A stretch of DNA of 64,000 nucleotides from Nitrospiraceae bacterium (GTDB taxonomy: Bacteria; Nitrospirota; Nitrospiria; Nitrospirales; Nitrospiraceae), in NCBI GenBank assembly GCA_050246315.1, contig JBFWWG010000003.1, forward strand, positions 192,001 to 256,000, given 5' to 3'. Each line of letters starts with the position of its first letter. Positions within the stretch are counted from its first letter, which is position 1. The notes below the pieces were generated by a model that did not search any database, was not told the DNA's origin, and saw nothing but the letters and a program-made list of their open reading frames with translations. Below, piece after piece: positions 47,630 through 62,615 of this stretch. A program made the position numbers and the translations under genes.

Positions 47630-47878
47630 CCTTTCACGGATTAGGCACATCCGCATCTCCTACCCATGACGAGATCCCAGCCGAAGACGGCGTCAAAAAG
47701 CGGATGGGATGTGTCGAAGAACAGAATCGCATGGTCTTGCGAGGCGATAGAGCATGTGGCAACCACGCTGGACTAGCGGTCTGGTCTGTCCGTAGTGCAA
47801 CCTCTGGGGATTGATAATTGCATGAAGGTCTCAATAGTCCATGGCTTCACACCATCGACCAACCATGGCGAGGATCAG

Positions 47879-48511
47879 ATGAATCTCAAAGGTCTCATTC
47901 ATCGAGAACTGGGGGAAGGACTCACCGAGAAAGAGCTGGCCACTGCGATCGGTGTCTCTCCGCGAACCATCGACAGGATTCTCGCGAATCAGCCCCCGAA
48001 CGATCCAGCCGTCTGGCATCGGTTCGCCAAGTACTTTCGGATGGATGCGGATTTCCTTCGCGCCGGTGGTCCGAATACGCGGGCTGCACGTTCCAAGAAG
48101 GGCGACGTGGCCCCGACCGTCCCGATGAGAAAGGTTCCGTTGGTGAGTTGGGAGGCGATCGGTCGAGTGGTTGCAGGCGAACCCGACGCCATCCACCACG
48201 ATGGCGCTGCGATGATCGAAACGGATGTTCAAGGGCCGCGCACGTTTGCTCTACGTGTGAAGGACGATTCCATGTATCCGCTCTTCGGTAAAGGCGAGGT
48301 CATTTTCGTCAACCCGGATTTCGACCGTGAGCCGGGACAGTATGTCATCGCGGGTCCGCGCCAGACTCCTGACCAGGCGGTCTTGAGAGAACTCCGAATG
48401 ATCGGAGACCATTACGTATTGCACCCGCTCAATCGAGGACGGAAGGATCTGCTCATGACGGAAGACTACTGCCTGTGGGGTAAAGTCATCCGGTTGCGAA
48501 AGAACCTTTGA
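47879..48511 (+). CDS. XRE HTH + S24 peptidase repressor (LexA/CI-like)
   Basis: LTEKELATAIGVSPRTI HTH; FALRVKDDSMYP S24 motif. Confidence 0.85.
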   Translation: MNLKGLIHRELGEGLTEKELATAIGVSPRTIDRILANQPPNDPAVWHRFAKYFRMDADFLRAGGPNTRAARSKKGDVAPTVPMRKVPLVSWEAIGRVVAGEPDAIHHDGAAMIETDVQGPRTFALRVKDDSMYPLFGKGEVIFVNPDFDREPGQYVIAGPRQTPDQAVLRELRMIGDHYVLHPLNRGRKDLLMTEDYCLWGKVIRLRKNL

Positions 48512-50883: not shown

Positions 50884-51126
50884 ATGGCCAAAAAGACCAC
50901 TCGGTTGTTCTTCAGCGGGAATAGCCAGGCCGTCCGCATTCCGAAAGAGTTTCAGATGGAAGGCGATGAGGTCGAGATCCAGCGCAGGGGCAACACCCTT
51001 GTGCTCCGCCCCATGAAAAAGTCCTGGGCAGCGTTGACCGATAGCTTGAAGAACTTTACGCGAGACTTTATGGAAAGCGGACGGCAGCAGCCCCTCTCAC
51101 AGAAACGGAAGCGGCCCTTTTCATGA
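50884..51126 (+). CDS. vapB: AbrB-type antitoxin VapB
   Basis: LFFSGNSQAVRIPKEF motif. Confidence 0.92.
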   Translation: MAKKTTRLFFSGNSQAVRIPKEFQMEGDEVEIQRRGNTLVLRPMKKSWAALTDSLKNFTRDFMESGRQQPLSQKRKRPFS

Positions 51127-51524
51127 AGGTGATGCTGGACACCAACATCTGCATCTATCTCATCAAGAAGCAACCTCCTTCCGTGCTGGAACGTTTCACG
51201 GACCATCCGGTCGGCGACATCGGCATCTCGGTCATCACATTGGCAGAACTCGAATACGGTGCGAGCAAGAGCCGGCATCCGCTGCGAAATCGGCTGGCCC
51301 TTTACCAATTCATTACGCCACTGGAAGTGGCTGACCTCGATCGGAATGCAGCGACCACCTATGGAAGACTCCGTGCTTCTCTAGAGACCAAGGGCACAGT
51401 CGTCGGAGCAATGGACCTCTTGATCGCTGCCCACGCGATCTGCCTGGGAGTCAAGCTGGTGACCAACAATGTACGGGAGTTTCAGCGAATCCCTGGATTG
51501 CGAGTGGACAATTGGGTGTCGTGA
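51123..51524 (+). CDS. vapC: PIN-domain toxin VapC
   Basis: MLDTNICIY, AELEYG, DLLIAAHA, VTNNVREF; ATGA overlap with vapB. Confidence 0.94.
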   Translation: MKVMLDTNICIYLIKKQPPSVLERFTDHPVGDIGISVITLAELEYGASKSRHPLRNRLALYQFITPLEVADLDRNAATTYGRLRASLETKGTVVGAMDLLIAAHAICLGVKLVTNNVREFQRIPGLRVDNWVS

Positions 51525-51557: not shown

Positions 51558-52254
51558 ATGAAGATCCAATCAGTGACCTATAACAACCGCAAAACGGCGT
51601 TTCAGGTGAGAGGGTCCAAGAAGTCAATGCTGCTTCCCTATTCGAAGGTCGATCCTCAACCCAGTGCCGACGATCCCATTGCCAAGCTCTACGTGGACAG
51701 GGAGCTTGGGCGGGAAGGGTTCACCTATGTGTTGGCCTCGGGCAAAGAAGGGACCGTCCATAGTGAGCAGGTCCTGGAGTACAACCAGGATCCGAACTAT
51801 CTAGCCCGCATTATTCATGACGATGCGTCACGAAATGGCGGAGTCGCATGGCGAGACGGGCGTGCGGAGCCGCAAGGAAGGGAGGCAGACTTGAAACAGT
51901 CTGTTGACCGACCGAGCGGCGAGTCCGCCAGCCTGCACACCATGGACCCCGTGCGCAGGCTTGTCGCAGCGGCGAATCCGTCATTGCAGTAGAAACGTTC
52001 ATGAATATTGCGGACCAGGAGATGCCTTGTTGCATAAGTTGACGGACGAGGCGCAACGACGAACGAAGGTCAGTCCTTTATCAAAGCGTGAGATGATCCG
52101 CAGGCTCGGGACCTCCGCCACGCAACTCTATCGCTTGCTCGACCAGACCAACTACCGCAAGTCGATCGACCAACTCTTGGCCCTGCTGCACATATTGGAT
52201 TGCGATGTCGATGTACTCGTGCGAACAAAACGCTCGCCGAGCAAGGCCGTCTAA
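51558..52254 (+). pseudogene. Gene with C-terminal HTH, split by a MITE insertion
   Basis: Removing 51805-52018 restores one frame: ...EYNQDPNYL-G-DALLHKLT...SKREMIRRLGTSATQLYRLLD. Confidence 0.8.
51801..52018 (+). mobile_element. MITE-like element inserted at CTAG
   Basis: CTAGCCCGCATTATTCATGA...TCATGAATATTGCGGACCAG terminal inverted repeats; interrupts a reading frame. Confidence 0.88.
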
Positions 52255-52272
52255 TCTCCGAAGGCACGGGCA

Positions 52273-52437
52273 GTGAGAGAGCACGACGATTTCTCAAGAT
52301 TGAAGGGACGTAGGAATCCCTATATCCTGTCGTTGAAGCAGCCGATTACGATGGGACTGGGCGACTGTCGAAAACAGGCATCCGTGAAGAGGACAAGGAA
52401 GACATCTGGTCGGGCTCCGTTCGTGAGCGCTAAGTAG
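52273..52437 (+). pseudogene. Truncated BrnA/CopG-like antitoxin remnant
   Basis: MREHDDFSRLKGRRNPYILSLKQPITM resembles the N-terminus of that antitoxin family (from recall); the remainder looks unrelated. Confidence 0.45.
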
Positions 52438-52464
52438 ATGGCTTCATAAGTCAATTCTCATGCC

Positions 52465-52514
52465 TGACCCTCTACTCTGCTCCTCTACTCTGCTCATGAC
52501 CCTCTACTCTGCTC
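52465..52514. repeat. Three copies of CTCTACTCTGCTC
   Basis: Exact 13-mers at 52470, 52483 and 52502; first and third are preceded by TGACC. Confidence 0.85.
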
Positions 52515-52648
52515 CGAGCAAGGCCGCGTGATATCTGTAGGCGGATGAAGCGGAAGGGGACATCAGGAGAGGAGGCGGATCAACTGGGGAGCGACGCGGG
52601 AGCTGATACTCGGCGAGGAATGGCGCTCTGTGGACTATCGAGGAAACT

Positions 52649-52691
52649 CGCGATCGGGGCCGTCGGCTTTCGCCAATCGGCCCCGATCGCG
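52649..52691 (-). other. Strong hairpin downstream of the DGR template repeat
   Basis: CGCGATCGGGGCCG / CGGCCCCGATCGCG 14-bp stem. Confidence 0.7.
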
Positions 52692-52823
52692 CCACCCCAG
52701 GCCCTCTCTTCGGCGTTCCCGCGTCGGCGAGAGGCCGGGAAGCAGGCTCATGGACACCCGCTGCCTCACCCGGCCTGTCCGTGAACAGACCGGCTCCGGG
52801 CCGGCCAGAGCCGTGCGGGCGGA

Positions 52824-52944
52824 CTGGACAAGACGGAATCCCAGGTTGTTGTTCCGGTTGTCGGCATTGTTCCTGTTCCGGTTCGACGCACGGAGGTTCT
52901 CCGGTTTGTTGTTCCAGGACCCGCCGCGGATCACACGCTGGCCG
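52824..52944 (-). repeat. DGR template repeat (TR)
   Basis: 121-bp ungapped match to VR 54498-54618; 17 mismatches, all at TR adenines; 11 AAY codons. Confidence 0.96.
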
Positions 52945-54013
52945 TCTTGTGGCCCGCTCCCCTTGTGAACACGGCCTGGGAGAAGATCGCTCTGCGTAGA
53001 CCCTCCGTGTCGGCATGTTTCGCATGGCCGATCCAGCTCTGAATGGAGGCCACCATCATGGTCCATTCCAGGCGCCCGGTTCGATAGATCTGCGCCATCC
53101 GGCGGAATCGCCGTGCGAACCGATGACCGTTATCGTTCCGGAGCCGACGGTGCTCTGGATAGACGATGTACCCCAGGATATTGAGCCCGTCAACCGTGCG
53201 CGTCACGTGGGCCTTGTTGGGATGGGGTTGGAGCCGGTCGGTGGCAAGCCGCTCACGGACGGCTGCGCGAATGTCGGTCAGTCTGGCTTTATCGTCCCCC
53301 AGCACGACCAAATCATCCACGTAGCGCAGGTAGGGCCGGACGCGCAACCCCTGCTTGATGTAGTGATCCAGGTCGTCCAGGTAGAGATTGGCAAAAAATT
53401 GGCTCGTCAGGTTGCCGATGGGGATGCCCACCCGTCGTTCCCACGGCGTAAAGAGATTATCGCCGGCAAAATAGCATGGCTCGGTCCCCTGTCTTGGAGA
53501 CCCATCGATAATACGATCCAACAGGGCCAGGACGCACCTATCCTTGATACGCCGGCGAAGCTTCGCCTTGAGCAGCTCGTGATCGATGGAGGGGAAGTAC
53601 TGCCGGACGTCCATCTTCAAGACGTACCGATAGGTCTGCGCCCAGGCTTGATAGCGGTCCACCGCCGCATGGACGCCCTTGCCGTGACGGCAGGCATAGG
53701 AGTCGGCAATGAAGGTCCGGTCGAGCGGTGGCTCGATCACGTTCATGACCGCATGGTGCACGACCCGGTCGCGAAACGGTGCGGCGGCAATCACACGCGG
53801 CTTGCGTTCATAAATTGTGAACAGACGGTAGTCATCCGGCCGATAGGTCCCCTCCTGAAGCTCGCGCTGGAGCGACAGTACCTCCCCTTCAAGAGCAAGA
53901 CCAAAATCCGCGACGCCCTGACGACTCCGCTTGCCCCGCCGCGCCTTCCGATAGGCGGCGAGCAAATTCTCAAAACTGACCAGCCGCGGCCACAGTTCCC
54001 CGAGTCGTGTCAT
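52931..54013 (-). CDS. DGR reverse transcriptase
   Basis: 360 aa; FRDRVVHHA, GIPIGNLTSQFFANLYL (DGR-type SQ), YLRYVDD; no maturase or endonuclease domain; coupled to avd by ATGA overlap. Confidence 0.95.
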   Translation of the reverse strand: MTRLGELWPRLVSFENLLAAYRKARRGKRSRQGVADFGLALEGEVLSLQRELQEGTYRPDDYRLFTIYERKPRVIAAAPFRDRVVHHAVMNVIEPPLDRTFIADSYACRHGKGVHAAVDRYQAWAQTYRYVLKMDVRQYFPSIDHELLKAKLRRRIKDRCVLALLDRIIDGSPRQGTEPCYFAGDNLFTPWERRVGIPIGNLTSQFFANLYLDDLDHYIKQGLRVRPYLRYVDDLVVLGDDKARLTDIRAAVRERLATDRLQPHPNKAHVTRTVDGLNILGYIVYPEHRRLRNDNGHRFARRFRRMAQIYRTGRLEWTMMVASIQSWIGHAKHADTEGLRRAIFSQAVFTRGAGHKTASV

Positions 54014-54366
54014 ATGTTTTCTTGAGACGCAGCTCGACTACGGACCCAGCCGCCGATCTGCCGCCCGAGGTCATCAAGGAGTCTCGCTCCATGCTCGTAC
54101 TGCCGGATCGCCATAACTCCTAGTTCGTGGGCCAGCCGCCAGAGGTGGCGCACGACCTCCAGACGCAGATTCGCGCGATGCAACGGCACGTCCTTGTTCC
54201 GCGCATAGGCTGCCTCCACCAACAGCTCCAGCACCTCAAGCAATCCGGCTTCCAACCGCTCGCCCAATGTGAACCGCCGGGCACGGGGGAATTTATCGAG
54301 TTGCGGGATCAGCCACAGAAGCAAGTCATGACAGGATTGGACAGCTTGGGGGAGGCTGGTCGTCAT
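54010..54366 (-). CDS. avd: DGR accessory variability determinant (Avd, four-helix bundle)
   Basis: 118 aa; KFPRARRFTLGERL...GRQIGGW; immediately upstream of the RT. Confidence 0.9.
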   Translation of the reverse strand: MTTSLPQAVQSCHDLLLWLIPQLDKFPRARRFTLGERLEAGLLEVLELLVEAAYARNKDVPLHRANLRLEVVRHLWRLAHELGVMAIRQYEHGARLLDDLGRQIGGWVRSRAASQENI

Positions 54367-54401
54367 GTGCCGTCAACCTGAGCCGTTTAGGATTTCTCTG
54401 A

Positions 54402-54438
54402 CCGGCCCTCGCCCGATGTCGAATCGGGCGAGGGCCGG
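54402..54438. other. DGR target-recognition hairpin/cruciform downstream of VR
   Basis: Perfect 16-bp stem CCGGCCCTCGCCCGAT / ATCGGGCGAGGGCCGG with a 5-nt loop, 45 nt after the target stop codon. Confidence 0.8.
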
Positions 54439-54482
54439 CCTCTTTCGGAAGTGTAAAGGGTAAAAGGACAAAGGATAAAGGG

Positions 54483-56402
54483 TTATTCGGTCATGTCCTG
54501 GACAAGACGGAATCCCAGGTTGCCGTCCCGGAAGTCGGCATTGACCCCGTTCCGGTTCGACGCACGGAGGAGCTCCGGCCTGTCGACCCAGGACCCGCCG
54601 CGGAGCACACGCCGGCCGCAATCGCCTTTGCCCCCCTCGAGCCAAGCAGAGCCATCAGTCGGCGCCCCTTGATAATCATCGTGCCAGCAATCCTCCACCC
54701 ATTCCCACACATTCCCGCTCATATCATGCAGCTCAAAACTGTTTTTTGTCTTCTGCCCAACAGGGTCGGTGCGATCGGTGCCGTAGACTGCGTAATCCTT
54801 CAATTCTTGCGGTGACGAGGCTCCAGCCCACTTGTTGTTCTTCTCTCTGCCTCGCGCCGCATACTCCCACTCGGATTCGGTCGGAAGTCGATAGGCGTTC
54901 CCTGTTGCCCTGGACAGCCACTTGGCATAGTCTTTCGCCTCACCCCACGAGACATAGATCACGGGCCGTCTGTCACGACCCCAGCCTGCATCCCCTGGTC
55001 GCTGCCCACCTGCCAATTCCAGATACCGGTCATACTCTTCAAAGGTCACTTCGTATCTGCCCATCTTAAACCCATTGATCCGGACTTGGTGTTTCTCATC
55101 GTCACCCTGTTCATAGGTGCCTTCAGGAATCTCCACCATGGCTGGCTTAGCGACCTGCACAACACCAGAGCGAACCAGGAGACTGGATCCGACATATCGA
55201 ATCTCTTTCCACAGAAAAGCGACTGGCAAGCCAACCAGCGCCAGGATGAGGCCGGCACTTAAAAGCTGTACCGTGTGCTTCGCTCGGCGTTCATTCCAAC
55301 CCTGAATCCAATGCGCCACCTGCCCGACGAGATAATCATGCTTGAATTCGTACCAGTCTGTTCCTTGACGCTCTTCGTGGCGAAGGACTCCATTACCGGC
55401 AAGACTTGTGAGGATAGTCCGTATCCGCTGGTCGTTGGAGACGCGTAAGGTATCCCTTAGGTCTTCGATGGGTCGATAGCGTTTCGTATTATCGGGCGTC
55501 TTCAGTGCGTTAAGAATGCGGACCATTAACGGTTTCTGCGTCCGAGGCATCGAGTTCAATGGCTCGAACACGCTCTTCTCGAGTATGTCTTTGGCTTTCC
55601 CACATGCCTCATAGTCCGCAGGCGTGATTGCGCCTCCTCCTTGCGGCTGTCTTCTCTGAAACTCTCTCCACAGAGTCCAGCAGACAATTTGGAGTTTGAT
55701 CGGCGCAACTCTGCCTGATCCATCCTTCAGGTCTTCGATAAGCCGATCCACAAGGTCCGATTCATAGTCATACCCGACGACTCTCACAGGCATCTCAATC
55801 GCGCGACGCGCCTCTTGCGTTGCTAACGAGGTCAGCCGGACATTCGCATTGTTTTGAAAGATCGACGGGATGACCTCCCTGAACTCGTGCAGGTCGGCGA
55901 AGTAATCCTCACGGAGAGACAGCACGAGGAACACAGGAAGCTGCTCGTCGTATCGGACGAGCGCGACCTGACGAATAAACTCTTCCCTTAACTTTGGACT
56001 CTCACGGAAGACGATGAAAAATTCTTCAAACTGGTCGACAAAGACGACGAGTCGAATTTTCCTATCTTCGACGATTTTCGTGAGAAACCCATGGAGTTCC
56101 TTAGGCTGTCCGTCGACATTGAGTTCCTTCGACACGGCATCTTGGATCGAGGTGACGGGATTGCTTTCCAGTCTGGTATGGATGGTCTTATAGCCGAGCT
56201 TTTCGAGTTCCGGCCTGACCCCTGCGTTGATCAAGGACGTCTTGCCTGAGCCGGAAGGAGAAAATAAGACGAGCAGCCGTGAGGAAAGCACCTCGCCAAC
56301 CATTTTTTGAACTTCCTGCTCCCGTCCAAAAAACAAGTCCGCATCCTCAAGGCGGTAGTAATCCAGATATCGATAGGGAGACCTGACGGGTGTATCGTTC
56401 AC
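54483..56402 (-). CDS. DGR target: STAND-type (nSTAND1-like) NTPase + TM + FGE-sulfatase/CLec domain
   Basis: SPYRYLDYY..FFGRE, Walker A SPSGSGKT, Walker B VFVDQFEE, LSLREDY, YEFKHD; TM LLSAGLILALVGLPVAFLW; FGE motifs RLPTESEWEYAARG, DMSGNVWEW, RGGSW, GFRLV. Confidence 0.92.
   Translation of the reverse strand: MNDTPVRSPYRYLDYYRLEDADLFFGREQEVQKMVGEVLSSRLLVLFSPSGSGKTSLINAGVRPELEKLGYKTIHTRLESNPVTSIQDAVSKELNVDGQPKELHGFLTKIVEDRKIRLVVFVDQFEEFFIVFRESPKLREEFIRQVALVRYDEQLPVFLVLSLREDYFADLHEFREVIPSIFQNNANVRLTSLATQEARRAIEMPVRVVGYDYESDLVDRLIEDLKDGSGRVAPIKLQIVCWTLWREFQRRQPQGGGAITPADYEACGKAKDILEKSVFEPLNSMPRTQKPLMVRILNALKTPDNTKRYRPIEDLRDTLRVSNDQRIRTILTSLAGNGVLRHEERQGTDWYEFKHDYLVGQVAHWIQGWNERRAKHTVQLLSAGLILALVGLPVAFLWKEIRYVGSSLLVRSGVVQVAKPAMVEIPEGTYEQGDDEKHQVRINGFKMGRYEVTFEEYDRYLELAGGQRPGDAGWGRDRRPVIYVSWGEAKDYAKWLSRATGNAYRLPTESEWEYAARGREKNNKWAGASSPQELKDYAVYGTDRTDPVGQKTKNSFELHDMSGNVWEWVEDCWHDDYQGAPTDGSAWLEGGKGDCGRRVLRGGSWVDRPELLRASNRNGVNADFRDGNLGFRLVQDMTE
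54498..54618 (-). repeat. DGR variable repeat (VR)
   Basis: Encodes GRRVLRGGSWVDRPELLRASNRNGVNADFRDGNLGFRLVQ versus TR GQRVIRGGSWNNKPENLRASNRNRNNADNRNNNLGFRLVQ. Confidence 0.96.
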
Positions 56403-57283
56403 GGGGTCCTACGAATTCCGAGTTGGGGAACGTCGAGGGTAAACTTCACGGCAACTTTTCTGGCAAATTCGGTTAGGTCTTCGTCGAAGATCTGTATATT
56501 TCGTCGCAACCAGTATGATCGAATGAAATGCGACGGGCTCTTCATGAGGGCATAGGCCGTGATGGCTCTTGATCTCGCGGTTTGCGTGGAGAGCACCCCC
56601 TCCCAGATCACGCGAAAGTTCCAATCTTCGAGACTGTATCCCAGGAACAAGAGACTGCATTGTGGGATTACTTGCTTGCGGAAATATTCAGGCATTCCCT
56701 TATCGATGTCGGTCAGATTTGCCAAGTATTGAATGTAGTCCGATTGGGTAATGACAAGACTTTCGGGATCTTCGATCGTGCCATGCATCTTATGCATAAC
56801 GAGTTCTCGGTCGCGAAACTGGAATGGCCCCCTAAAATGACCGGTCCTTGGATCCAGCGGCTTATGGACATGCTTGGTCAGAATCCGACCTTGTGACGTA
56901 AGTGCAGTCTCCAAAAGCGTGTCGTAATTTGATGTCAGAATGATCTTGATGTGGTTCAGTTGGGAGAGCACAGTGTGGATGGGCCGTGGCTGACAAGGTA
57001 CCTGAAGCTGCTGCTGCAAAGCGCTTTCCAGCGGCTGTCTGTTGCCTCCATGGAAATAGACATGGTGCTCAGCGACTTTGGCAAGATCATAGGCCCCGTT
57101 TGCATATTGGCACTGTGCAGCTAAGACCTTTGCCAGCTCACCTCCGGTAGGAAGACCAGGATTCTGCGCTCCGTCTGTCCCAGGGTAAGCCGTGCAGGCG
57201 CCCGCACCCAGGAATACCACGCATTGTTGAGATTCAAGGGCGGTGAAGATGATGCTGAGATCCTGGTCAGCCAGCCCATTCAT
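56399..57283 (-). CDS. SIR2-like domain protein (candidate NADase)
   Basis: VFLGAGA, LPTG, TSNYD, KMHG, LFLGYSLEDWN; its stop overlaps the GTG start of the DGR target. Confidence 0.88.
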   Translation of the reverse strand: MNGLADQDLSIIFTALESQQCVVFLGAGACTAYPGTDGAQNPGLPTGGELAKVLAAQCQYANGAYDLAKVAEHHVYFHGGNRQPLESALQQQLQVPCQPRPIHTVLSQLNHIKIILTSNYDTLLETALTSQGRILTKHVHKPLDPRTGHFRGPFQFRDRELVMHKMHGTIEDPESLVITQSDYIQYLANLTDIDKGMPEYFRKQVIPQCSLLFLGYSLEDWNFRVIWEGVLSTQTARSRAITAYALMKSPSHFIRSYWLRRNIQIFDEDLTEFARKVAVKFTLDVPQLGIRRTP

Positions 57284-57757
57284 CACGGGACTCGCAACGG
57301 CTCTCGTTCGGTGAATCTGCTTTGGTTTTCATTGGGGGCATTGGAGATAGCTGTAGATGAGGCTGGACGAGTCGCTGGAGCAACTGAACGGCTGTCCCCA
57401 CACCAGCACCTCACAGATATGAGGTACGATCATTTCATACCACTGTGGCCAGCGCGTAGGCAGGTCAACGAATTATCTGCATCTGCCGATTGGGAGTCAA
57501 GCCAGCCGACTCATGGTTTCGACGAAATACATGTATTTCCGAAAGGTGACACGGTCGATCGGACGGGTCGTGCGGTCCAATGCCATTCTTAGTAGAATTT
57601 GCGAAGCGGTTTCCACCGTGAGCCCTGTCCAATTCTCCTCCTCACGAGGGTTCTCGGACGTGGGAGTAAACAGGGTAGTAAGAATGGGATATTCTGATTT
57701 TCTGACCGTGACCATTCGCTGTTCGTCTCCGGCAAACTAGAATGTCCTCAAGTTAGC

Positions 57758-57914
57758 CGGCTGGAACGGATGCGCGGTGAGGTTGGAGCGACGGCAGGAC
57801 CTGCCGTGATAGAGACGGGCGGTCACTGTTCGCGGCATCATGGCGCGACCGAACCCGTGCACCATTCGTCAGCCGACCACCTTTAGTCTTCCAGCGTCGA
57901 AATATCCCCCGCGT
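57758..57914 (+). repeat. Direct repeat copy A containing a duplicate of the acs 3' end
   Basis: 57828-57914 matches 59085-59171 ungapped (10 mismatches in 87 nt); both copies also begin with CGGCTGGAACGGATGCGCGG. Confidence 0.85.
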
Positions 57915-58028
57915 ACGGGCCTTGGCCTCAGCAGGTGATTCAGCAAGTGCCCGTGACTCCACCGGCGGCTTCACGATAGTTGCATTTTTGCAATTGTTGT
58001 CGGATAGTGAATGTTAGGAGAACGGAGT

Positions 58029-58235
58029 ATGAAATTCACGGTCACCATTACGCGAGACGAAGACGGGATGTTCATTTCCGAATGCCCGGCTATTCCAGGC
58101 TGCGTCAGTCAAGGCAAGACGGAAGAGGAAGCGCAGTCGAACATTCAGGACGCCATCAAACAATGTTTGGAAGTCCGTGCTGAGATGGGCATGCCGCTCA
58201 CCATCACCACACGCCAAGTCGAAGTTCCGGTGTAA
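58029..58235 (+). CDS. hicB: HicB-family antitoxin
   Basis: DEDG..ECPAIPGCVSQGKTEEEA..NIQDAI. Confidence 0.9.
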   Translation: MKFTVTITRDEDGMFISECPAIPGCVSQGKTEEEAQSNIQDAIKQCLEVRAEMGMPLTITTRQVEVPV

Positions 58236-58465
58236 TGCCGCCTCCTCCTGTTCTTTCTCCCGCAGCAGTCATCAAGACCTTCGAGCGACTCGGTTGGCGA
58301 GTGGTTCGACAGAAAGGCAGTCATATCATCATGACAAAATCCGGCCACATTGCCACCCTGTCGATTCCTAATCATTCAGAAGTTGCGCGAGGCACGCTTC
58401 GCACCCTGATCTCCAGAGCAGGGTTGACGGTGGAACAGTTTATCGAAGTCCTACAGAGGGACTGA
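58235..58465 (+). CDS. hicA: HicA-family toxin
   Basis: LGW..RQKGSHIIM..IPNH..GTLRTLI; TAATG overlap with hicB. Confidence 0.9.
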   Translation: MPPPPVLSPAAVIKTFERLGWRVVRQKGSHIIMTKSGHIATLSIPNHSEVARGTLRTLISRAGLTVEQFIEVLQRD

Positions 58466-58933: not shown

Positions 58934-59171
58934 CGGCTGGAACGGATGCGCGGGGAGGGCGGCGCCATGGCAGAGGGTGCCGCTCGGCCAGCCTCAGCAA
59001 TCCCGAGCGCGACGACATGCGACGCCGCGTCGCAGTTTTATAGGAGCACTCGGCTAGACAGAAAAACACGCAAGAGCCGTCCAGGTTCGCTGCATCATGG
59101 CGCGACCGAACCCGCGCGCCGTTCGCCAGCCGACTGCCCTTAGTCTTCCAACGTCGAAATATCTCCCGCGT
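58934..59171 (+). repeat. Direct repeat copy B including the true acs 3' end
   Basis: Partner of 57758-57914; offset 1257 bp in the colinear part. Confidence 0.85.
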
Positions 59172-61032
59172 CCTGGCCCAACTCCTTCGCCTTCAGCACA
59201 CGGCGCATGATCTTGCCCGACCGCGTCTTGGGCAGCGAGGGTACAATATCGATCTCTGCCGGCACCGCGATCTTGCCCAACTCGGTCAGCACGTGGTTCT
59301 TGAGCGACTGAATCAGGTCCGTACTGTCCTGGTGTCCGTGCTTCAGAATCACGAAGGCCTTGATCGATTCGCCGACGGTTGCATGCGGCTTGCCGATGAC
59401 CGCCGCTTCCGCCACGGCCGGATGGCTCACGAGCGCGCTTTCCACTTCCGCCGTGCCGATCCGGTTGCCGGCCACCTTGATCACGTCGTCGGCCCGGCCC
59501 ATGAACCAGAGATACCCGTCTTCATCTTTCCGGCAGACATCGCCCGCGGTGTAGCAATTGGGAATGGTGTTCCAGTAGACCTTGTAGCGGTCCGGGTCTT
59601 TGTAGATCGTCCGCATCATGGCCGGCCAAGGTTTCTTCACCACGGCAAAGCCGCCGGCATTGGCCGGCAGGCTCTTTCCCTCCCGGTCCACGACATCCGC
59701 CTCTACTCCTAGAAACGGCCTCGTCGCCGAGCCAGGTTTGAGCGGCACGGAGGGGAGGGGCGTCACCAGAATCATGCCGGTCTCCGTCTGCCACCAGGTG
59801 TCCATGATCGGCTTGTCGCCGCCCGTCACGCGATGGAACCATTCCCAGGCTTCGGGGTTGATCGGTTCGCCCACGCTGCCGAGCACCCGCAGGCTGGCGA
59901 GGTCGTACTTTCTCGGCCAGTCCTCTCCATAGCGCATGAGCAATCGAATCGCCGTCGGCGTCGTATAAAACACCGTGACGCCGTAGCGGGCAATGATGTC
60001 CCACCAGCGGCCGGGGTTCGGATAATCCGGCTTGCCCTCGGCCGTCAGGATCGTGGCGCCGTTCAAGAGCGGTCCATAGACGATGTAACTGTGTCCCGTG
60101 ACCCAGCCCGGGTCGGCCACGCAGAAATAGAGATCGTCCTCTTTCAGATTGAACACGTACTTCGTCGTCAAGTAGGTCCCGACCATGTAGCCGCCGTGCA
60201 CATGGACGACACCCTTCGGCTTGCCGGTTGTGCCGGAGGTATAAAGAATGTACAGCGGGGTTTCCGAATCGAGTGGCTCGGCTTCGCAGACCGCAGGCTG
60301 ATCCCTCAGCCAGTCCTCCCAATCGATTTCCTTGGGCGCGGCGAGTGGCCCGCCGGGTTTCTCGCGTCGGACCACCACCACGTGCTCGACGGTCCGGCAG
60401 TGGGCCACCGCCTGATCGACGACCGGCTTCAGTTGAATCACCTTGGCTCGGTCGTACCCGACATCCGCCGTGATCACCAGTCGCGACTCGGCATCCTGAA
60501 TGCGACTTTCAAGGGCCGGCGCGCTGAAGCCGGAATAGACCACGCTATGGATCAAACCGAGACGCGCACAGGCCAGCATCGCGACCATTTGTTCGGGAAT
60601 CTTCGGCAGATAGATCGTGACCCGATCGCCCTTCCGCAACCCAAGCGCTTTGAGCGCGTTCGCGCAACGGCAGACCTGGCGATACAGCTCGGCATAGGTG
60701 AAAATGCGCTCCTCGCCCTTTTCGCCGACCCAAATAAGGGCGACCTTGTGGCGACGCCAGGTTTTGACGTGGCGATCGAGGCAGTTGTACGCCATGTTGC
60801 AGGTCCCGCCGACGAACCATTGGGCCCAGGGATACTTCCATTCCAACACCTGCTTCCAGGGAGTGAACCAGTCGAGTTCCTTGGCCGCCTGCTCCCAAAA
60901 GGCCTCGGGGTTCTGGATCGACAGCCGATAGGCTGTCTCGTAGTCCGGGATGTAGGTCGAGGCGACGGTTTCGTGATTCGGTCGGTAGACGCGGGCTTCC
61001 TTCAACAGCGTATCCACTTTATCGTCGGCCAT
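59140..61032 (-). CDS. acs: Acetyl-CoA synthetase
   Basis: YTSGTTGKPKG, DTWWQTETG, PKTRSGKIMRR. Confidence 0.96.
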   Translation of the reverse strand: MADDKVDTLLKEARVYRPNHETVASTYIPDYETAYRLSIQNPEAFWEQAAKELDWFTPWKQVLEWKYPWAQWFVGGTCNMAYNCLDRHVKTWRRHKVALIWVGEKGEERIFTYAELYRQVCRCANALKALGLRKGDRVTIYLPKIPEQMVAMLACARLGLIHSVVYSGFSAPALESRIQDAESRLVITADVGYDRAKVIQLKPVVDQAVAHCRTVEHVVVVRREKPGGPLAAPKEIDWEDWLRDQPAVCEAEPLDSETPLYILYTSGTTGKPKGVVHVHGGYMVGTYLTTKYVFNLKEDDLYFCVADPGWVTGHSYIVYGPLLNGATILTAEGKPDYPNPGRWWDIIARYGVTVFYTTPTAIRLLMRYGEDWPRKYDLASLRVLGSVGEPINPEAWEWFHRVTGGDKPIMDTWWQTETGMILVTPLPSVPLKPGSATRPFLGVEADVVDREGKSLPANAGGFAVVKKPWPAMMRTIYKDPDRYKVYWNTIPNCYTAGDVCRKDEDGYLWFMGRADDVIKVAGNRIGTAEVESALVSHPAVAEAAVIGKPHATVGESIKAFVILKHGHQDSTDLIQSLKNHVLTELGKIAVPAEIDIVPSLPKTRSGKIMRRVLKAKELGQDAGDISTLED

Positions 61033-61223: not shown

Positions 61224-62615
61224 ATGGTGCAAGCCTCCTGCCGTCCGCTTTCGCTGACCGCTTGGATTGTTCGCTCCGGTCTCTTTCTCCTCCCATGGGC
61301 CGCCCTCGTCGCTGTGCCCACCCCCGCACAGGCGCAGGCGGGAAAACCCGAAGGTCTCTACTATAAGTCTTGGGCGGTCGTGGTTGGGATCGAAGACTAT
61401 CTCGTCGCGCCAAAGGTCCCCGGCGCCGCCGCCGACGCCAAGGCCATGGCTGAATCCCTGCGCGGACTCGGCTTTGAGGAAGTGATCGAACTTTACGACA
61501 AGAAGGTCACGTCCAAACAATTCCATTTCATTTTGAACGACGTGTTGCCACGAAAGGTCGGACGGGGCGACCGTTTGGTGTTGTACTTCGCGGGACACGC
61601 CGGCCAGACCACCGATGCGGGCGGGGCTCCCTTGGGCTACCTGGTGCCGTGGGATGCGCAACTGGGGAGCGTGGCGAAGTCCGTAACGCTGGATCAATTG
61701 AAGGAATTCAGCCGGCGGGTGATGGCCAAACATATTTTCCTGATTCTTGATACGCCGGTCACCGGTTGGGACGTGACCGCACCCCAGCAACTCTCGTTAG
61801 AAGGACGCATGGCGCCGGAACAGGATACGGACAAGCGGGCCGTCCAGGTCCTGACTGCGGCGAAGAGTGGAGAAGAGATCGCGCGGTCGGAAACCACCAG
61901 CCTGTTTATGCAGGTCCTGAAGGAGGGCCTGTCGGGACAGGCCGATCGCAACAAGAACGGTTGGTTGATGGCCACGGAATTGGCCTCGTACGTGCAGGAA
62001 CAGGTCGAGGCCCGCTCCAAGGGAACCCAACACCCGCAATTTGCCAGGCTGGACGGGGACGGGGACACGATCCTGATCGAAGGACGGAAGGTCGATTTCA
62101 CTGTCGGAGTCGGTCCCGAGACCGAACAGGAGCGTATGGCAGCAGCCAAGGCCCATTATGATGAGGCGTTCCGCCTCTTGCAGGCCCGCAAGGACCCAGA
62201 AGAAGCCCTGACCCGGTTGAACAAGGCCATTGCCTTGGCCCCCTCCTTCGGCGACGCCTATGTCTTGAAGAGTTACATGCAGTTGGAAGTCCTCCCGAAC
62301 CTGGACGAAGCGTTACAAACCGCGAATTTGGCCGTTGCCCATGCCCCGGAAAATCCGGATTCTCACTACACGCTCGGGCTGATTCAGGAAAAGAATGGAC
62401 GGTATCAGGAAGCGGAACGGGCCTACCTCAAGGCGCTGGAAATCAATCCCGACTATGCCGACGTGCTCCTCTCCCTGGGCCTATTGTACGAGGACCACCT
62501 GAAGCAGGACCAAAAGGCGGCGGATGCCTATCGCCGCTACAGTGAATTGGGCGGAACCGACAGCCGAGCCACCAAGTTCCTCGAAGGCCACGCCCAGCCT
62601 TCGAGCTCGCAGTAA
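61224..62615 (+). CDS. Exported caspase-like (peptidase C14) domain + TPR protein
   Basis: Signal peptide, AVVVGIEDY, YFAGHAG, ILDTP, C-terminal TPRs. Confidence 0.8.
   Translation: MVQASCRPLSLTAWIVRSGLFLLPWAALVAVPTPAQAQAGKPEGLYYKSWAVVVGIEDYLVAPKVPGAAADAKAMAESLRGLGFEEVIELYDKKVTSKQFHFILNDVLPRKVGRGDRLVLYFAGHAGQTTDAGGAPLGYLVPWDAQLGSVAKSVTLDQLKEFSRRVMAKHIFLILDTPVTGWDVTAPQQLSLEGRMAPEQDTDKRAVQVLTAAKSGEEIARSETTSLFMQVLKEGLSGQADRNKNGWLMATELASYVQEQVEARSKGTQHPQFARLDGDGDTILIEGRKVDFTVGVGPETEQERMAAAKAHYDEAFRLLQARKDPEEALTRLNKAIALAPSFGDAYVLKSYMQLEVLPNLDEALQTANLAVAHAPENPDSHYTLGLIQEKNGRYQEAERAYLKALEINPDYADVLLSLGLLYEDHLKQDQKAADAYRRYSELGGTDSRATKFLEGHAQPSSSQ

Follow-up and report, generated by a model that had tools for sequence, protein, structure and literature searches.

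The window, by which we mean the whole 64,000-nucleotide stretch analysed, contains what we propose to be a four-gene operon encoding a SIR2 protein, a receptor composed of an nSTAND1 NTPase, a transmembrane (TM) helix and a C-type-lectin-fold (CLec) domain, an Avd protein, and an RT accompanied by its TR. The DGR formed by the latter components rewrites the final 40 codons of the receptor gene from the TR, making errors specific to adenines, and this diversification has happened repeatedly in natural populations. Our best explanation of the whole, to which we give slightly better than even chances, is that a DGR-diversified membrane receptor switches on the separately encoded SIR2.

Structure of the locus

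The elements named in the initial annotation (SIR2, a 639-aa target, VR, hairpin, avd, RT and TR) were all recovered in their places by ORF, Pfam, PADLOC and repeat searches, and follow one another on the minus strand in the order SIR2, nSTAND1-TM-FGE/CLec, hairpin, Avd, RT and TR. The SIR2 gene (56399..57286; 295 aa; Pfam SIR2_2, 3.5e-25; PADLOC ThsA SIR2 part, 2.1e-23) meets the target gene in a GTGA junction, its stop overlapping the GTG start of the target, as direct reading of the letters bears out. The target (54483-56402) comprises the NTPase at residues 1-375 (55278..56402; nSTAND1, 1.4e-52, residues 9-367), a single predicted TM helix at residues 376-401 (55200..55277), and a linker plus FGE-sulfatase/C-type-lectin-fold domain at residues 402-639 (54483..55199; FGE-sulfatase, 8.1e-47, residues 420-634), with the VR occupying codons 597-635 (54498..54618). 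Beyond the VR, the letters show a CCCTTT-rich stretch followed by a GC hairpin whose stem has 16 bp and whose loop has 5 nt (54402..54482, the hairpin at about 54402-54439); the 151-nt stretch containing the hairpin folds as DNA at -33.2 kcal/mol. In the same genome, the VRs on contigs C5 and C4 are followed by this element too, and the one on C18 by a weaker form; the hairpin is absent after the remote VR on C14.

Next come Avd (54010..54366; 118 aa; bAvd, 9.4e-17) and the RT (52931..54013; 360 aa; RVT_1, 8.1e-19; PADLOC RT, 2.4e-53), 86% and 79% identical to their C5 counterparts and joined by an ATGA overlap of Avd stop and RT start. The RT translation contains IGNLTSQ and YVDD, which we take to be hallmarks of DGR RTs. 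The TR (52824..52944) overlaps the final 14 nt of the RT gene and is followed 3' by a conserved stretch (52655..52823, also minus strand), 77-80% identical to stretches after the C5 and C14 TR copies, which may be the rest of the DGR RNA and had no Rfam match. About 190 nt upstream of SIR2, a promoter-like site (TTGACT-17-GATAAT, 57472..57500, minus strand) matches at 10 of 12 positions, a weak hint only, because the region has 2 such sites against 2.4 in shuffles.

Toxin-antitoxin genes flank the module on both sides (MazE/PIN at 50884-51524, HicB/HicA at 58011-58465 and Phd at 58486-800), so that the toxin-antitoxin-rich setting described earlier holds. The SIR2 and NTPase module has a GC content of 52% (51.8% for SIR2, 52.3% for the NTPase) against 60% for its surroundings and 59.6% for the window. 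A caspase-TPR gene lies close by (61224-62615). The host is a Nitrospira, its Acs sharing 94% identity with the N. tepida protein, and is present in sequencing runs from sludge, bioreactors and wastewater. Independent assemblies span the complete target and SIR2 with 0 differences (e.g., 54618-57400 in runs X7 and X11), and the target gene is therefore not an assembly chimera.

Diversification of the receptor tip

The VR and TR form a 121-nt repeat of 86% identity in which 17 of 17 mismatches fall at TR adenines; since the TR has 32 adenines in 121 nt, the probability of this arising by chance is about 0.26^17. In contigs from three other, independent metagenome studies the VR is the only variable stretch: the VR piece differs at 15 (X11) or 18 (X3) places while its flanks differ at 0, and the variant places listed inside the VR lie at TR adenines without exception (20/20). 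Alleles differ both between and within samples, although contigs record alleles and not rates or present-day mutagenesis, and the RNA evidence consists of contigs from a library that possibly contained DNA. Hypermutation of the target by the DGR, as originally claimed, is thus upheld both by the adenine-restricted mismatches and by variation confined to the VR across other studies' contigs.

Of the 32 TR adenines, 30 are at codon positions 1 or 2, and the TR includes 12 AAY codons, which lets 18 codons vary and yields about 10^17.7 protein variants. This TR also fits a second, remote receptor, a TIR-TM-CLec gene whose VR (G000:C14:41788-41908) has 18/18 mismatches at adenines.

Proposed mechanism

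In the mechanism that we propose, the NTPase would lie in the cytoplasm, a single helix would cross the inner membrane, and the hypervariable CLec tip would bind a foreign or non-self ligand in the periplasm, for example some part of a phage on its way through the envelope, a toxin that has been secreted, or a factor from a predator. With a ligand bound, the NLR-like STAND module would oligomerise in an NTP-dependent manner and switch on the SIR2; this would then consume NAD+ until the cell is stopped or killed, as with Avs5, DSR2 and ThsA. The mechanistic precedent is the assembly of SIR2-STAND filaments described for Avs5 in PMC11897194. That the SIR2 is a separate polypeptide would be explained by a receptor whose C-terminus is outside the cell and whose NTPase begins at the extreme N-terminus. 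Diversification would then create a spread of receptor specificities within a clonal, microcolony-forming Nitrospira population. NADase activity, ligand binding and a role in defence are all predictions of this model.

The same machinery might instead serve another purpose, the periplasmic tip sensing neighbouring cells or their products rather than phage, whether in recognition of kin and non-self, of predators or toxins, or in a controlled death within microcolonies. The sensor is predicted to lie outside the cytoplasm, and most phage proteins never appear there. The sludge, bioreactor and wastewater origin of the host also favours such a role, as do the neighbouring caspase-TPR gene and the link that passages of Doré et al. 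(PMC10907252) draw between such DGRs and multicellular or aggregative bacteria. Nevertheless, the nearest characterised SIR2/STAND systems (Avs5, DSR2, ThsA) are anti-phage, and defence islands typically have toxin-antitoxin neighbours and a patchy distribution; among 200 other genomes of the family, SIR2 occurs in 1 (a weak match of 25% identity) and a DGR RT in 14. We consider neighbour-sensing unlikely, though it deserves to be taken seriously beside the defence receptor that we prefer.

Origin of the receptor

The receptor is a natural chimera in which a low-GC SIR2 and NTPase module is joined, near the TM helix, to a resident TM-CLec/Avd/RT/TR cassette. Its NTPase shares 58% identity with P0002, an nSTAND1-HEAT protein of KSB1, and only 25% with the NTPase of the paralogue in its own genome, while the CLec part is 59% identical to the C5 paralogue; protein homology changes partner between residues 375 and 394, and DNA homology to the C5 cassette begins at 55201. 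Relatives of the SIR2-partnered NTPase have the form NTPase-TM-HEAT, and among 53 NTPase homologues at least 40% identical the window's protein alone bears an FGE domain. The pair of SIR2 and membrane-anchored nSTAND1 was acquired horizontally and normally bears a HEAT-repeat sensor; the acquired NTPase lost its HEAT part and gained, at the TM helix, the resident CLec sensor with its Avd, RT and TR. The genome has four paralogous CLec targets, three with a fused N-terminal TIR and the fourth with DUF4062.

Across some 5.8 billion clustered proteins, the chimera was seen only in this genome, and so it is young and could be uncoupled. It might then be a recent recombination accident, in which the VR is still rewritten but the CLec domain no longer controls the NTPase, activation of the SIR2 fails or goes wrong, and the gene is drifting towards decay. 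Its solitary position among the 53 homologues and a junction placed within the TM helix would suit such an accident, and cassettes in decay do occur in the genome: C4 has a remnant of an RT, C14 has a remnant of an Avd and a degenerate TR, and on C5 the VR departs from its own TR at 8 places that are not adenines. Yet the reading frame, the SIR2 motif and the Walker motifs (A, G51/G53/K54/S56; B, D123/Q124/E126/E127; invariant across 38 homologues) are intact, and runs from several studies show not one letter changed in the locus outside the VR, which indicates that it is kept. Furthermore, both parent families follow the NTPase-TM-sensor plan, so that a swap at the helix preserves the architecture. 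We regard a non-functional accident as quite improbable, and a working receptor as the better account.

Topology of the receptor

The claim of one TM helix agrees with the single hydrophobic segment found in the target, a run of 26 consecutive hydrophobic residues with a Kyte-Doolittle peak of 2.29 over 19 residues; by the same measure the N-terminus has no hydrophobic segment. Of the 53 close NTPase homologues, 48 have a single TM in this position, although their sequence identity is low, and three of the four paralogous targets have one at the corresponding place, the C18 paralogue lacking it. Charges on either side of the window's helix are about equal, and the C4 paralogue has clearly more basic residues ahead of the helix than behind; given the balanced charge in the window, the topology leans on the paralogues and on an N-terminus that lacks an export signal. 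Solved structures related to the CLec part include PvdO (5hha, 1.2e-33), which is the best, and the DGR variable protein TvpA (2y3c, 4.3e-19). PvdO is a periplasmic protein. The conserved single TM fits a cytoplasmic NTPase with its sensor outside; against this, the relatives would then have HEAT repeats outside the cytoplasm, which would be unusual.

Alternatively, the hydrophobic segment might not span the membrane and the CLec domain would be a cytoplasmic, hypervariable sensor, in keeping with the intracellular reading of FGS sensors in Kaur et al. 2021 (PMC8195603), with the C18 paralogue and with the balanced charges. The strength and length of the hydrophobic segment, its retention among divergent homologues and the periplasmic location of PvdO all oppose this, as does its absence from relatives whose C-terminal SIR2 must be cytoplasmic: 13 more distant, TM-less relatives combine nSTAND1 and SIR2_2 domains in one protein, with the NTPase N-terminal and the SIR2 C-terminal in the five fusions checked and no TM-like segment past the NTPase. 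A cytoplasmic sensor thus seems very doubtful to us, and the membrane-spanning receptor preferable.

The SIR2 gene and its partner

The SIR2 protein has no further domain and no TM, and is encoded by a single-copy gene. Its structural relatives are ThsA-like 7uxt (8e-12), KomC (8zsf), ThsA (6lhx) and DSR2 (8k98); the catalytic-type residues N120, D122, H168 and G169 are invariant in 7/7 aligned homologues, and the protein is a predicted NAD+-consuming effector. We surveyed 42 loci of the SIR2 clade (SIR2 identity of at least 33%). An NTPase of the clade directly follows SIR2 in 36, and the other 6 stop at a contig edge just past SIR2, so that the linkage expected by the initial annotation is kept in 36/36 informative loci, which come from phyla other than the host's. 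As in the window, the SIR2 and NTPase genes overlap by 4 nt in several loci, and one KSB1 locus (L030) holds the best relatives of both SIR2 (65%) and NTPase (58%). SIR2 is fused to CHAT in 9/42 loci, two of which add a PD-(D/E)XK gene. On this comparative evidence, the position upstream of the NTPase appears to behave as an effector slot, occupied by SIR2 or SIR2-CHAT, with the fused TIR apparently playing the role in the paralogues, and a genuine functional partnership of SIR2 with the NTPase clade is supported. That SIR2 and DGR target are mere neighbours, SIR2 working alone as its match to single-gene PADLOC candidates (PDC-S25, 2.3e-14) might suggest, appears close to refuted by this synteny across several phyla, the GTGA overlap and the existence of nSTAND1-SIR2 fusions.

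Comparison with known systems

The initial interpretation gains from the population-level diversification, the synteny of SIR2 and NTPase and the recurrence of the TM helix, while its novelty was overstated, because DGR-diversified STAND-CLec sensors had already been predicted in print. Kaur et al. (2021, eLife, PMC8195603) interpret DGR-linked STAND NTPase-FGS proteins as 'analogs of adaptive immunity receptors'; passages of Doré et al. (2024, PNAS, PMC10907252) describe DGR targets of the nSTAND1-CLec type as 'antigen sensors', a part of them periplasmic, with a DGR 'clade 5D' of nSTAND1/NACHT-CLec; and a preprint by Kibby et al. (2022; 10.1101/2022.07.19.500537) reports bacterial NACHT proteins with SIR2 effectors, with TM segments and with C-termini of 'antigen receptor-type', either FGS or HEAT. 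What stands is the split layout: literature searches found no SIR2 acting in trans with an nSTAND1-TM-CLec protein and DGR. New here are SIR2 as a conserved partner, the chimera, the TIR paralogues, the shared TR and natural VR variation, and the locus represents a compact variant of a predicted class of bacterial immune sensor.

With the systems in the Kaur 2021 and Doré 2024 passages it shares a central nSTAND1 NTPase, a C-terminal FGE/CLec domain with a VR tip, adjacent Avd-RT-TR, several loci per genome, an aggregative host and, in some cases, a CLec domain predicted to be periplasmic. In the forms described there the effector or adaptor (EAD, TIR, peptidase) is N-terminal on the NTPase protein or recruited through shared adaptor domains, whereas the window's NTPase begins at residue 9, with a SIR2 effector encoded apart from it and translationally coupled to it. 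The term SIR2 has 0 occurrences in the texts of Doré 2024 and Kaur 2020, and its one mention in Kaur 2021 (PMC8195603) relates to another system; the supplementary tables of these papers may list such loci.

Close relatives are the two-gene modules of SIR2 (or SIR2-CHAT) and nSTAND1-TM-HEAT, for which literature searches found no paper and which occur in Acidobacteriota, KSB1, Planctomycetota, Rhodothermales, Verrucomicrobiota, Methylococcales, Aminicenantes and metagenomes. Their genes come in the same order and overlap likewise, a single TM again follows the NTPase, and identities are 34-65% for SIR2 and 35-58% for the NTPase; their sensor consists of HEAT repeats (Lcl_C in two proteins) where the window has FGE, and none of the 42 SIR2-clade loci showed an RT or Avd.

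Avs5 (AVAST type 5, e.g. EfAvs5) is the best mechanistic model, with its SIR2 NADase effector, STAND switch and C-terminal sensor, activated, according to PMC11897194, by assembly into oligomers or filaments. It is a single cytoplasmic polypeptide with an N-terminal SIR2 and a fixed sensor, whereas the window's system is split over two genes and has a TM helix, a CLec sensor predicted to lie outside and a DGR, and its NTPase matched 0 families (E up to 0.01) among PADLOC models of known STAND defence proteins, including Avs. Thoeris ThsA and DSR2 have a homologous SIR2 domain with the N and H motif; the window's protein has neither the SLOG domain nor the adjacent ThsB of ThsA, and it lacks the fused sensor of DSR2. 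Classical DGRs, those of Bordetella phage BPP-1 (Mtd) and Treponema denticola (TvpA, a direct sequence relative of the CLec part), share Avd, RT, an AAY-rich TR with adenine-mutagenised TR/VR, a CLec-fold target and a hairpin past the VR. Their target is a phage tail fibre or surface lipoprotein, while that of the window is a putative signalling receptor, equipped with an NTPase and paired with a death-type effector, and here a single TR fits two unlinked targets.

The operon and its surroundings

Four closely packed minus-strand genes, called as ORFs in the window, span 52824-57286 including the template repeat (TR), and they bear out the order of SIR2, STAND-TM-FGE/CLec target, hairpin, avd, reverse transcriptase (RT) and TR that the initial annotation had read from the bare sequence. 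The first encodes a SIR2 protein of 295 aa (56399-57286, minus strand; Pfam SIR2_2, 3.5e-25; PADLOC 'SIR2 part of ThsA', 2.1e-23), and the second encodes the 639-aa target (54483-56402, minus strand), in which nSTAND1 (1.4e-52) covers residues 9-367 and FGE-sulfatase (8.1e-47) residues 420-634. These are followed by an Avd gene (54010-54366, minus strand; Pfam bAvd, 9.4e-17) and an RT gene (52931-54013, minus strand; Pfam RVT_1, 8.1e-19; PADLOC RT, 2.4e-53), with the TR (52824-52944, minus strand) overlapping the 3' end of the latter; all the families that had been named for HMM searching are therefore matched. The variable repeat (VR; 54498-54618, minus strand) occupies the final 40 codons of the target (codons 597-635 of 639). 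The GTGA that had been noticed is confirmed as an overlap of the SIR2 stop codon with the start codon of the target, and the stop of Avd likewise overlaps the start of the RT gene, by ATGA. The RT translation contains IGNLTSQ and YVDD, which we take to be marks of the RTs of diversity-generating retroelements (DGRs).

On the 3' side of the VR lie a CCCTTT-rich stretch and then a 16-bp GC hairpin, both of which are found again after paralogous VRs. The former is a pyrimidine stretch of ~40 nt (54443-54482) directly past the stop codon, and it is kept at 5/5 CLec targets (those of the window and of contigs C5, C4, C14 and C18 of the same genome), including the one that lacks the hairpin. An Rfam gathering scan of 52000-58000 returned 0 families, and a promoter and terminator scan of the region gave site numbers no higher than in shuffles. 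Exact look-up of four window proteins found the target alone on record; the starts of our longest ORFs probably differ from those deposited.

The island is small, flanked by a riboflavin-synthase-like gene and an acetyl-CoA synthetase gene (acs), and its MazE/PIN, HicB/HicA and Phd genes agree with its earlier description as rich in toxin-antitoxin systems. The 3' end of acs and the DNA beyond it are partially duplicated (57758-57921 against 58934-59178, 80-84% identity, ~1.2 kb apart); the two copies flank the HicB/HicA/Phd genes, and the duplication looks like an insertion scar at the island edge. Just past acs there is a gene for a caspase (Peptidase_C14) and TPR protein (61224-62615, plus strand), another conflict-type gene near the island, and upstream of the island lies a gene for an HTH and Peptidase_S24 (LexA/CI-like) repressor (47795-48511, plus strand).

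Diversification of the target in nature

A 121-nt repeat joins the TR with the VR at 86% identity, and 17/17 mismatches fall at TR adenines, an adenine specificity that rejects a chance repeat as the origin of the pair. Of the 32 adenines in the TR, 30 occupy the first or second position of a codon, and AAY codons number 12; the computed capacity of the TR is 18 variable codons, or ~10^17.7 possible proteins. An RT beside the TR, adenine-only differences between TR and VR, an Avd, a VR at the C-terminal end of a CLec-fold target and natural variation of the VR together place the system among the DGRs, and the CLec part of the target is matched by TvpA (2y3c, 4.3e-19).

Sequence of 2.2 kb around the target occurs in sequencing runs from 8 studies of wastewater, bioreactors, sludge, aquatic sites and landfill, and we compared contigs over 52600-57400 from DNA runs of three studies (X3, X7 and X11) and from one RNA run (X15). 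Outside the repeats the contigs are letter-identical to the window (54618-57400 in X7 and X11, 54683-57400 in X3, and the RT and Avd pieces), and the assemblies end at the VR and TR borders. VR pieces with identical flanks differ from the window at 18 places in X3 and 15 in X11, and the VR core is covered in X7 by no piece at least 88% alike; among the variant places listed inside the VR, 20/20 are TR-adenine places. Contigs carrying the VR, for each of which there is one depth figure, are shallower than the flanks, as would be expected if a sample contains several alleles. This agrees with the hypermutation of the target that the initial annotation had claimed: the DGR has diversified the target VR in nature, adenine-specifically, as seen in contigs, which give no rates. 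An assembly chimera is rejected because independent contigs bridge the junction. Contigs of the RNA run cover the RT, the Avd, the target and the SIR2/target junction (56308-56715), thus all four genes; since the library may hold DNA, and some bins are without cover, we regard these contigs as a hint of transcription or co-transcription and not as proof.

SIR2 as the partner of the NTPase

With one genome scanned per species, 11 loci came to light whose SIR2 is 34-65% identical to the window's, and a metagenome scan with an alignment of those 11 found 69 loci, 31 of them in the same clade by a cut-off of 33% identity or more, so that 42 loci (11 + 31) were counted. A same-clade nSTAND1 NTPase follows directly after SIR2 in 36/42 loci and the remaining 6 stop at a contig end just past SIR2, which means that the pair is kept in 36/36 informative loci; the linkage for which a gene-neighbourhood survey had been proposed is therefore conserved. 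These pairs span Acidobacteriota, KSB1, Planctomycetota, Rhodothermales, Verrucomicrobiota, Methylococcales and Aminicenantes, with a gene overlap of 4 nt in several of the 36, and SIR2 is a conserved partner of this nSTAND1 NTPase clade. At one locus (L030) an IS (DDE transposase) splits the pair.

SIR2 is fused to CHAT, a caspase-like domain, in 9/42 loci (L033, L035, L040, L042, L043, L044, L048, L050 and L067), in two of which (L042 and L048) a PD-(D/E)XK gene stands between SIR2-CHAT and the NTPase gene; given these fusions and additions, the gene upstream of the NTPase behaves as an effector slot. Residues N120, D122, H168 and G169 are invariant in 7/7 aligned SIR2s and align with the motif of ThsA-like proteins, while the best solved relatives are 7uxt, KomC, ThsA and DSR2; from these resemblances SIR2 is predicted to be an effector that hydrolyses NAD+ on activation. 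In the NTPase, neither the Walker A nor the Walker B residues vary across 38 homologues. A prediction of the complex of SIR2 with NTPase residues 1-375, with alignments as input and controls not run, gave a score of 0.00 and counts neither way on binding.

An independent linkage of SIR2, nSTAND1 and FGE is found on a metagenome contig (L063, 190-6695), where a SIR2 gene (281 aa) is followed by genes for an nSTAND1 protein with a C-terminal SIR2_2 (973 aa) and for an nSTAND1-FGE-sulfatase protein (896 aa); the last two genes overlap, and the visible locus ends 337 nt past the FGE gene.

Chimeric origin of the target

The two parts of the target have different nearest relatives, and its origin is chimeric. 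Residues 1-375 have as their 52 closest relatives (40-58% identity) proteins that, with few exceptions, combine nSTAND1 with HEAT repeats; FGE occurs among close NTPase homologues in the window's protein only, other nSTAND1-FGE proteins being just 28-29% identical to its NTPase. Residues 7-375 share 58% identity with a KSB1 nSTAND1-HEAT protein (P0002), which is encoded in L030 adjoining the best SIR2 relative, and the homology ends at residue 375. Residues 394-639, in turn, are 59% identical to the C5 paralogue of the same genome, while the NTPases of the two are only 25% identical, and at the DNA level homology to the C5 cassette, at 77%, can be followed from 55201/55070 across Avd, RT and TR as far as 52655. 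GC content likewise sets SIR2 (51.8%) and the NTPase (52.3%) against TM-FGE (57.5%), Avd (60.5%), RT (60.8%) and the window (59.6%).

SIR2 is found in 1/200 other genomes of the family, as a weak 25% match, and so there is no orthologous locus to compare. A DGR RT is found in 14/200, including 3/3 of the same genus, a count that includes one genome flagged unpublished (G006), which enters into nothing else claimed here, and two relatives that we checked hold NTPase-TM-FGE-Avd-RT-TR without SIR2. On the simplest reading, the SIR2 and NTPase pair would have come in by horizontal transfer and recombined, at the stretch that encodes the membrane helix, with a DGR cassette already resident.

Two of the close NTPase relatives carry Lcl_C, another lectin-like domain; in P0016 and P0021 (53% identity, on short contigs) a C-terminal Lcl_C/DUF1566 comes after the TM. 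Lectin-like domains of the Lcl_C/DUF1566 family are known DGR targets.

Paralogous targets in the same genome

The host genome is that of a Nitrospira, its Acs being 94% identical to that of N. tepida. It holds a second intact cassette on C5 (Avd 86% and RT 79% identical to the window's), in which a TIR-nSTAND1-TM-FGE target (L018:6280-9168) is followed downstream by Avd, RT and TR, and three further CLec targets. That of C4 (L019:8010-10619) is also TIR-nSTAND1-TM-FGE, with only a 31-aa RT remnant kept at the locus; that of C14 (L020:7774-9186, minus strand; 470 aa) is TIR-TM-FGE, with its VR at C14:41788-41908; and that of C18 is DUF4062-nSTAND1-FGE. TIR is an NAD+-cleaving effector domain, and it is fused in 3/4 paralogues, in place of the trans-encoded SIR2 of the window's operon; the remainder of the genome thus supports the reading of SIR2 as a putative effector.

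Between the window's TR and the remote C14 VR, 18/18 mismatches are at TR adenines, and so one template seems to serve two unlinked receptors, the window's and that of C14. The C14 VR is without the hairpin seen at other loci, and a degenerate TR copy lies ~1.2 kb from it (C14:40478-40598), with neither RT nor Avd between. The C5 TR fits the C4 VR better than its own adjacent VR, with 14/14 mismatches at adenines in the former comparison against 18/26 (8 non-adenine) in the latter. Elsewhere on C14 a 32-aa Avd remnant (C14:18555-18650, 81% identical) stands beside another FGE-domain gene (C14:18772-19209), and this region looks like a further decayed cassette.

Membrane topology and proposed mechanism

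A single strongly hydrophobic segment is present in the target (residues 376-401, Kyte-Doolittle peak 2.29) and recurs in the C5, C4 and C14 targets, and exactly one such segment lies right after the NTPase in 48/53 close homologues, the window's included; distant relatives with a C-terminal SIR2 have no hydrophobic segment after the NTPase. Charge is balanced between the two sides of the window's own helix, and so we infer an N-in/C-out topology from a 375-residue NTPase without an export signal and from the basic N-flanks in the paralogues. A helix that places the C-terminus outside would explain why an NAD+-dependent effector must be a separate protein.

We propose a mechanism in which the CLec tip, lying outside, would bind a ligand, the STAND module would oligomerise upon binding, and SIR2 would be switched on and deplete NAD+, as in Avs5, DSR2 and ThsA. 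The interpretation in the initial annotation is partly supported, in that the partnership and architecture hold, whereas NADase activity is a prediction. A more ambitious reading, which we hold to be possible but rather unlikely, is that of a true transmembrane NLR-like bacterial receptor: a periplasmic lectin-fold tip, constantly rerandomised by a retroelement (~10^17.7 variants), would act through one helix on a cytoplasmic STAND switch and a SIR2 NADase in trans; a single template would supply both unlinked receptors, whose NAD+-destroying outputs differ (SIR2 in trans, TIR in cis); and an effector-switch pair gained by horizontal transfer would have traded whole ectodomains (HEAT to CLec) with a resident diversification cassette, at the membrane helix. 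If this were true, the locus would amount to a small immune organ with which a nitrifier generates a repertoire, and would record how such receptors evolve, by ectodomain exchange at the membrane helix.

Significance

DGR-diversified STAND-lectin proteins are the proposed nearest bacterial analogue of antigen receptors, and to our knowledge none has been tested. The locus offers a compact test case of ~4.5 kb and two signalling genes, with a predicted output, the loss of NAD+, that is biochemically simple; HEAT-sensor relatives are usable as natural controls, there is a fused-TIR paralogue in the same genome, and VR variation has already been seen in public metagenomes. Beyond this, the locus defines a widespread module of SIR2 with a membrane-anchored nSTAND1, and shows that the sensors of such receptors are swappable at the transmembrane helix; natural evidence for DGR activity and modular evolution is unusually good here. 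The host genus performs nitrite oxidation in wastewater treatment, which lends practical interest to its phage and predator defences.

Comparison with known systems

DGR-diversified STAND-CLec sensors, as a kind, are already in print. In the sections of these sources drawn on here, Kaur et al. 2021 (PMC8195603) name nSTAND1 and present DGR-linked STAND NTPase-FGS proteins (FGS being the FGE-type domain) as potential analogues of adaptive receptors; Doré et al. 2024 (PMC10907252) show DGR clade 5D diversifying nSTAND1/NACHT-CLec 'antigen sensors' whose tips lie in the cytoplasm or the periplasm; Kibby et al. (preprint, 10.1101/2022.07.19.500537) report for bacterial NACHT proteins that FGS and HEAT are interchangeable 'antigen receptor-type' C-termini, together with TM segments and SIR2 effectors; and a 2026 preprint has FGE-sulfatase sensors among defence STANDs. 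The novelty claimed in the initial annotation therefore does not extend to the class (Kaur 2021, Doré 2024, Kibby), but it stands for the layout, since the literature searched contained no case of an nSTAND1-TM-CLec DGR target with SIR2 split off in trans; nor did it contain a description of the SIR2 + nSTAND1-TM-HEAT module or a documented sensor swap, although the supplementary tables of the cited papers may list such loci.

Like the sensors in those sections of Kaur 2021 and Doré 2024, the target fuses a STAND NTPase to a C-terminal FGS/CLec that a DGR diversifies; unlike them, it is without an N-terminal effector or adaptor (nSTAND1 begins at residue 9), and the effector is a separate gene. 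Avs5, from the part of its description used here (PMC11897194), provides a mechanistic likeness for SIR2 switching and NAD+ depletion. In Avs5, however, SIR2 is fused N-terminally to STAND, whereas here there are two ORFs joined by the GTGA overlap. PADLOC matched the 639-aa target to 0 families at E up to 0.01, with no Avs/AVAST match, and across the target, its HEAT-type, Lcl_C-type and SIR2-fused relatives and the paralogues the NTPase matched no STAND defence model, so that we do not claim membership in a named Avs family. The operon also differs from Thoeris, in which ThsA combines SIR2 with SLOG and a ThsB TIR gene lies alongside: it has no TIR gene, and of the 478 positions in the ThsA model its SIR2 matches only 14-227, the protein ending at residue 295. 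In layout the operon resembles the SIR2 + nSTAND1-TM-HEAT two-gene module defined here, with SIR2 directly upstream of the NTPase and a single TM after it; the difference is that the HEAT sensor, of which a Pfam search of the target finds no family, is replaced by FGE/CLec.
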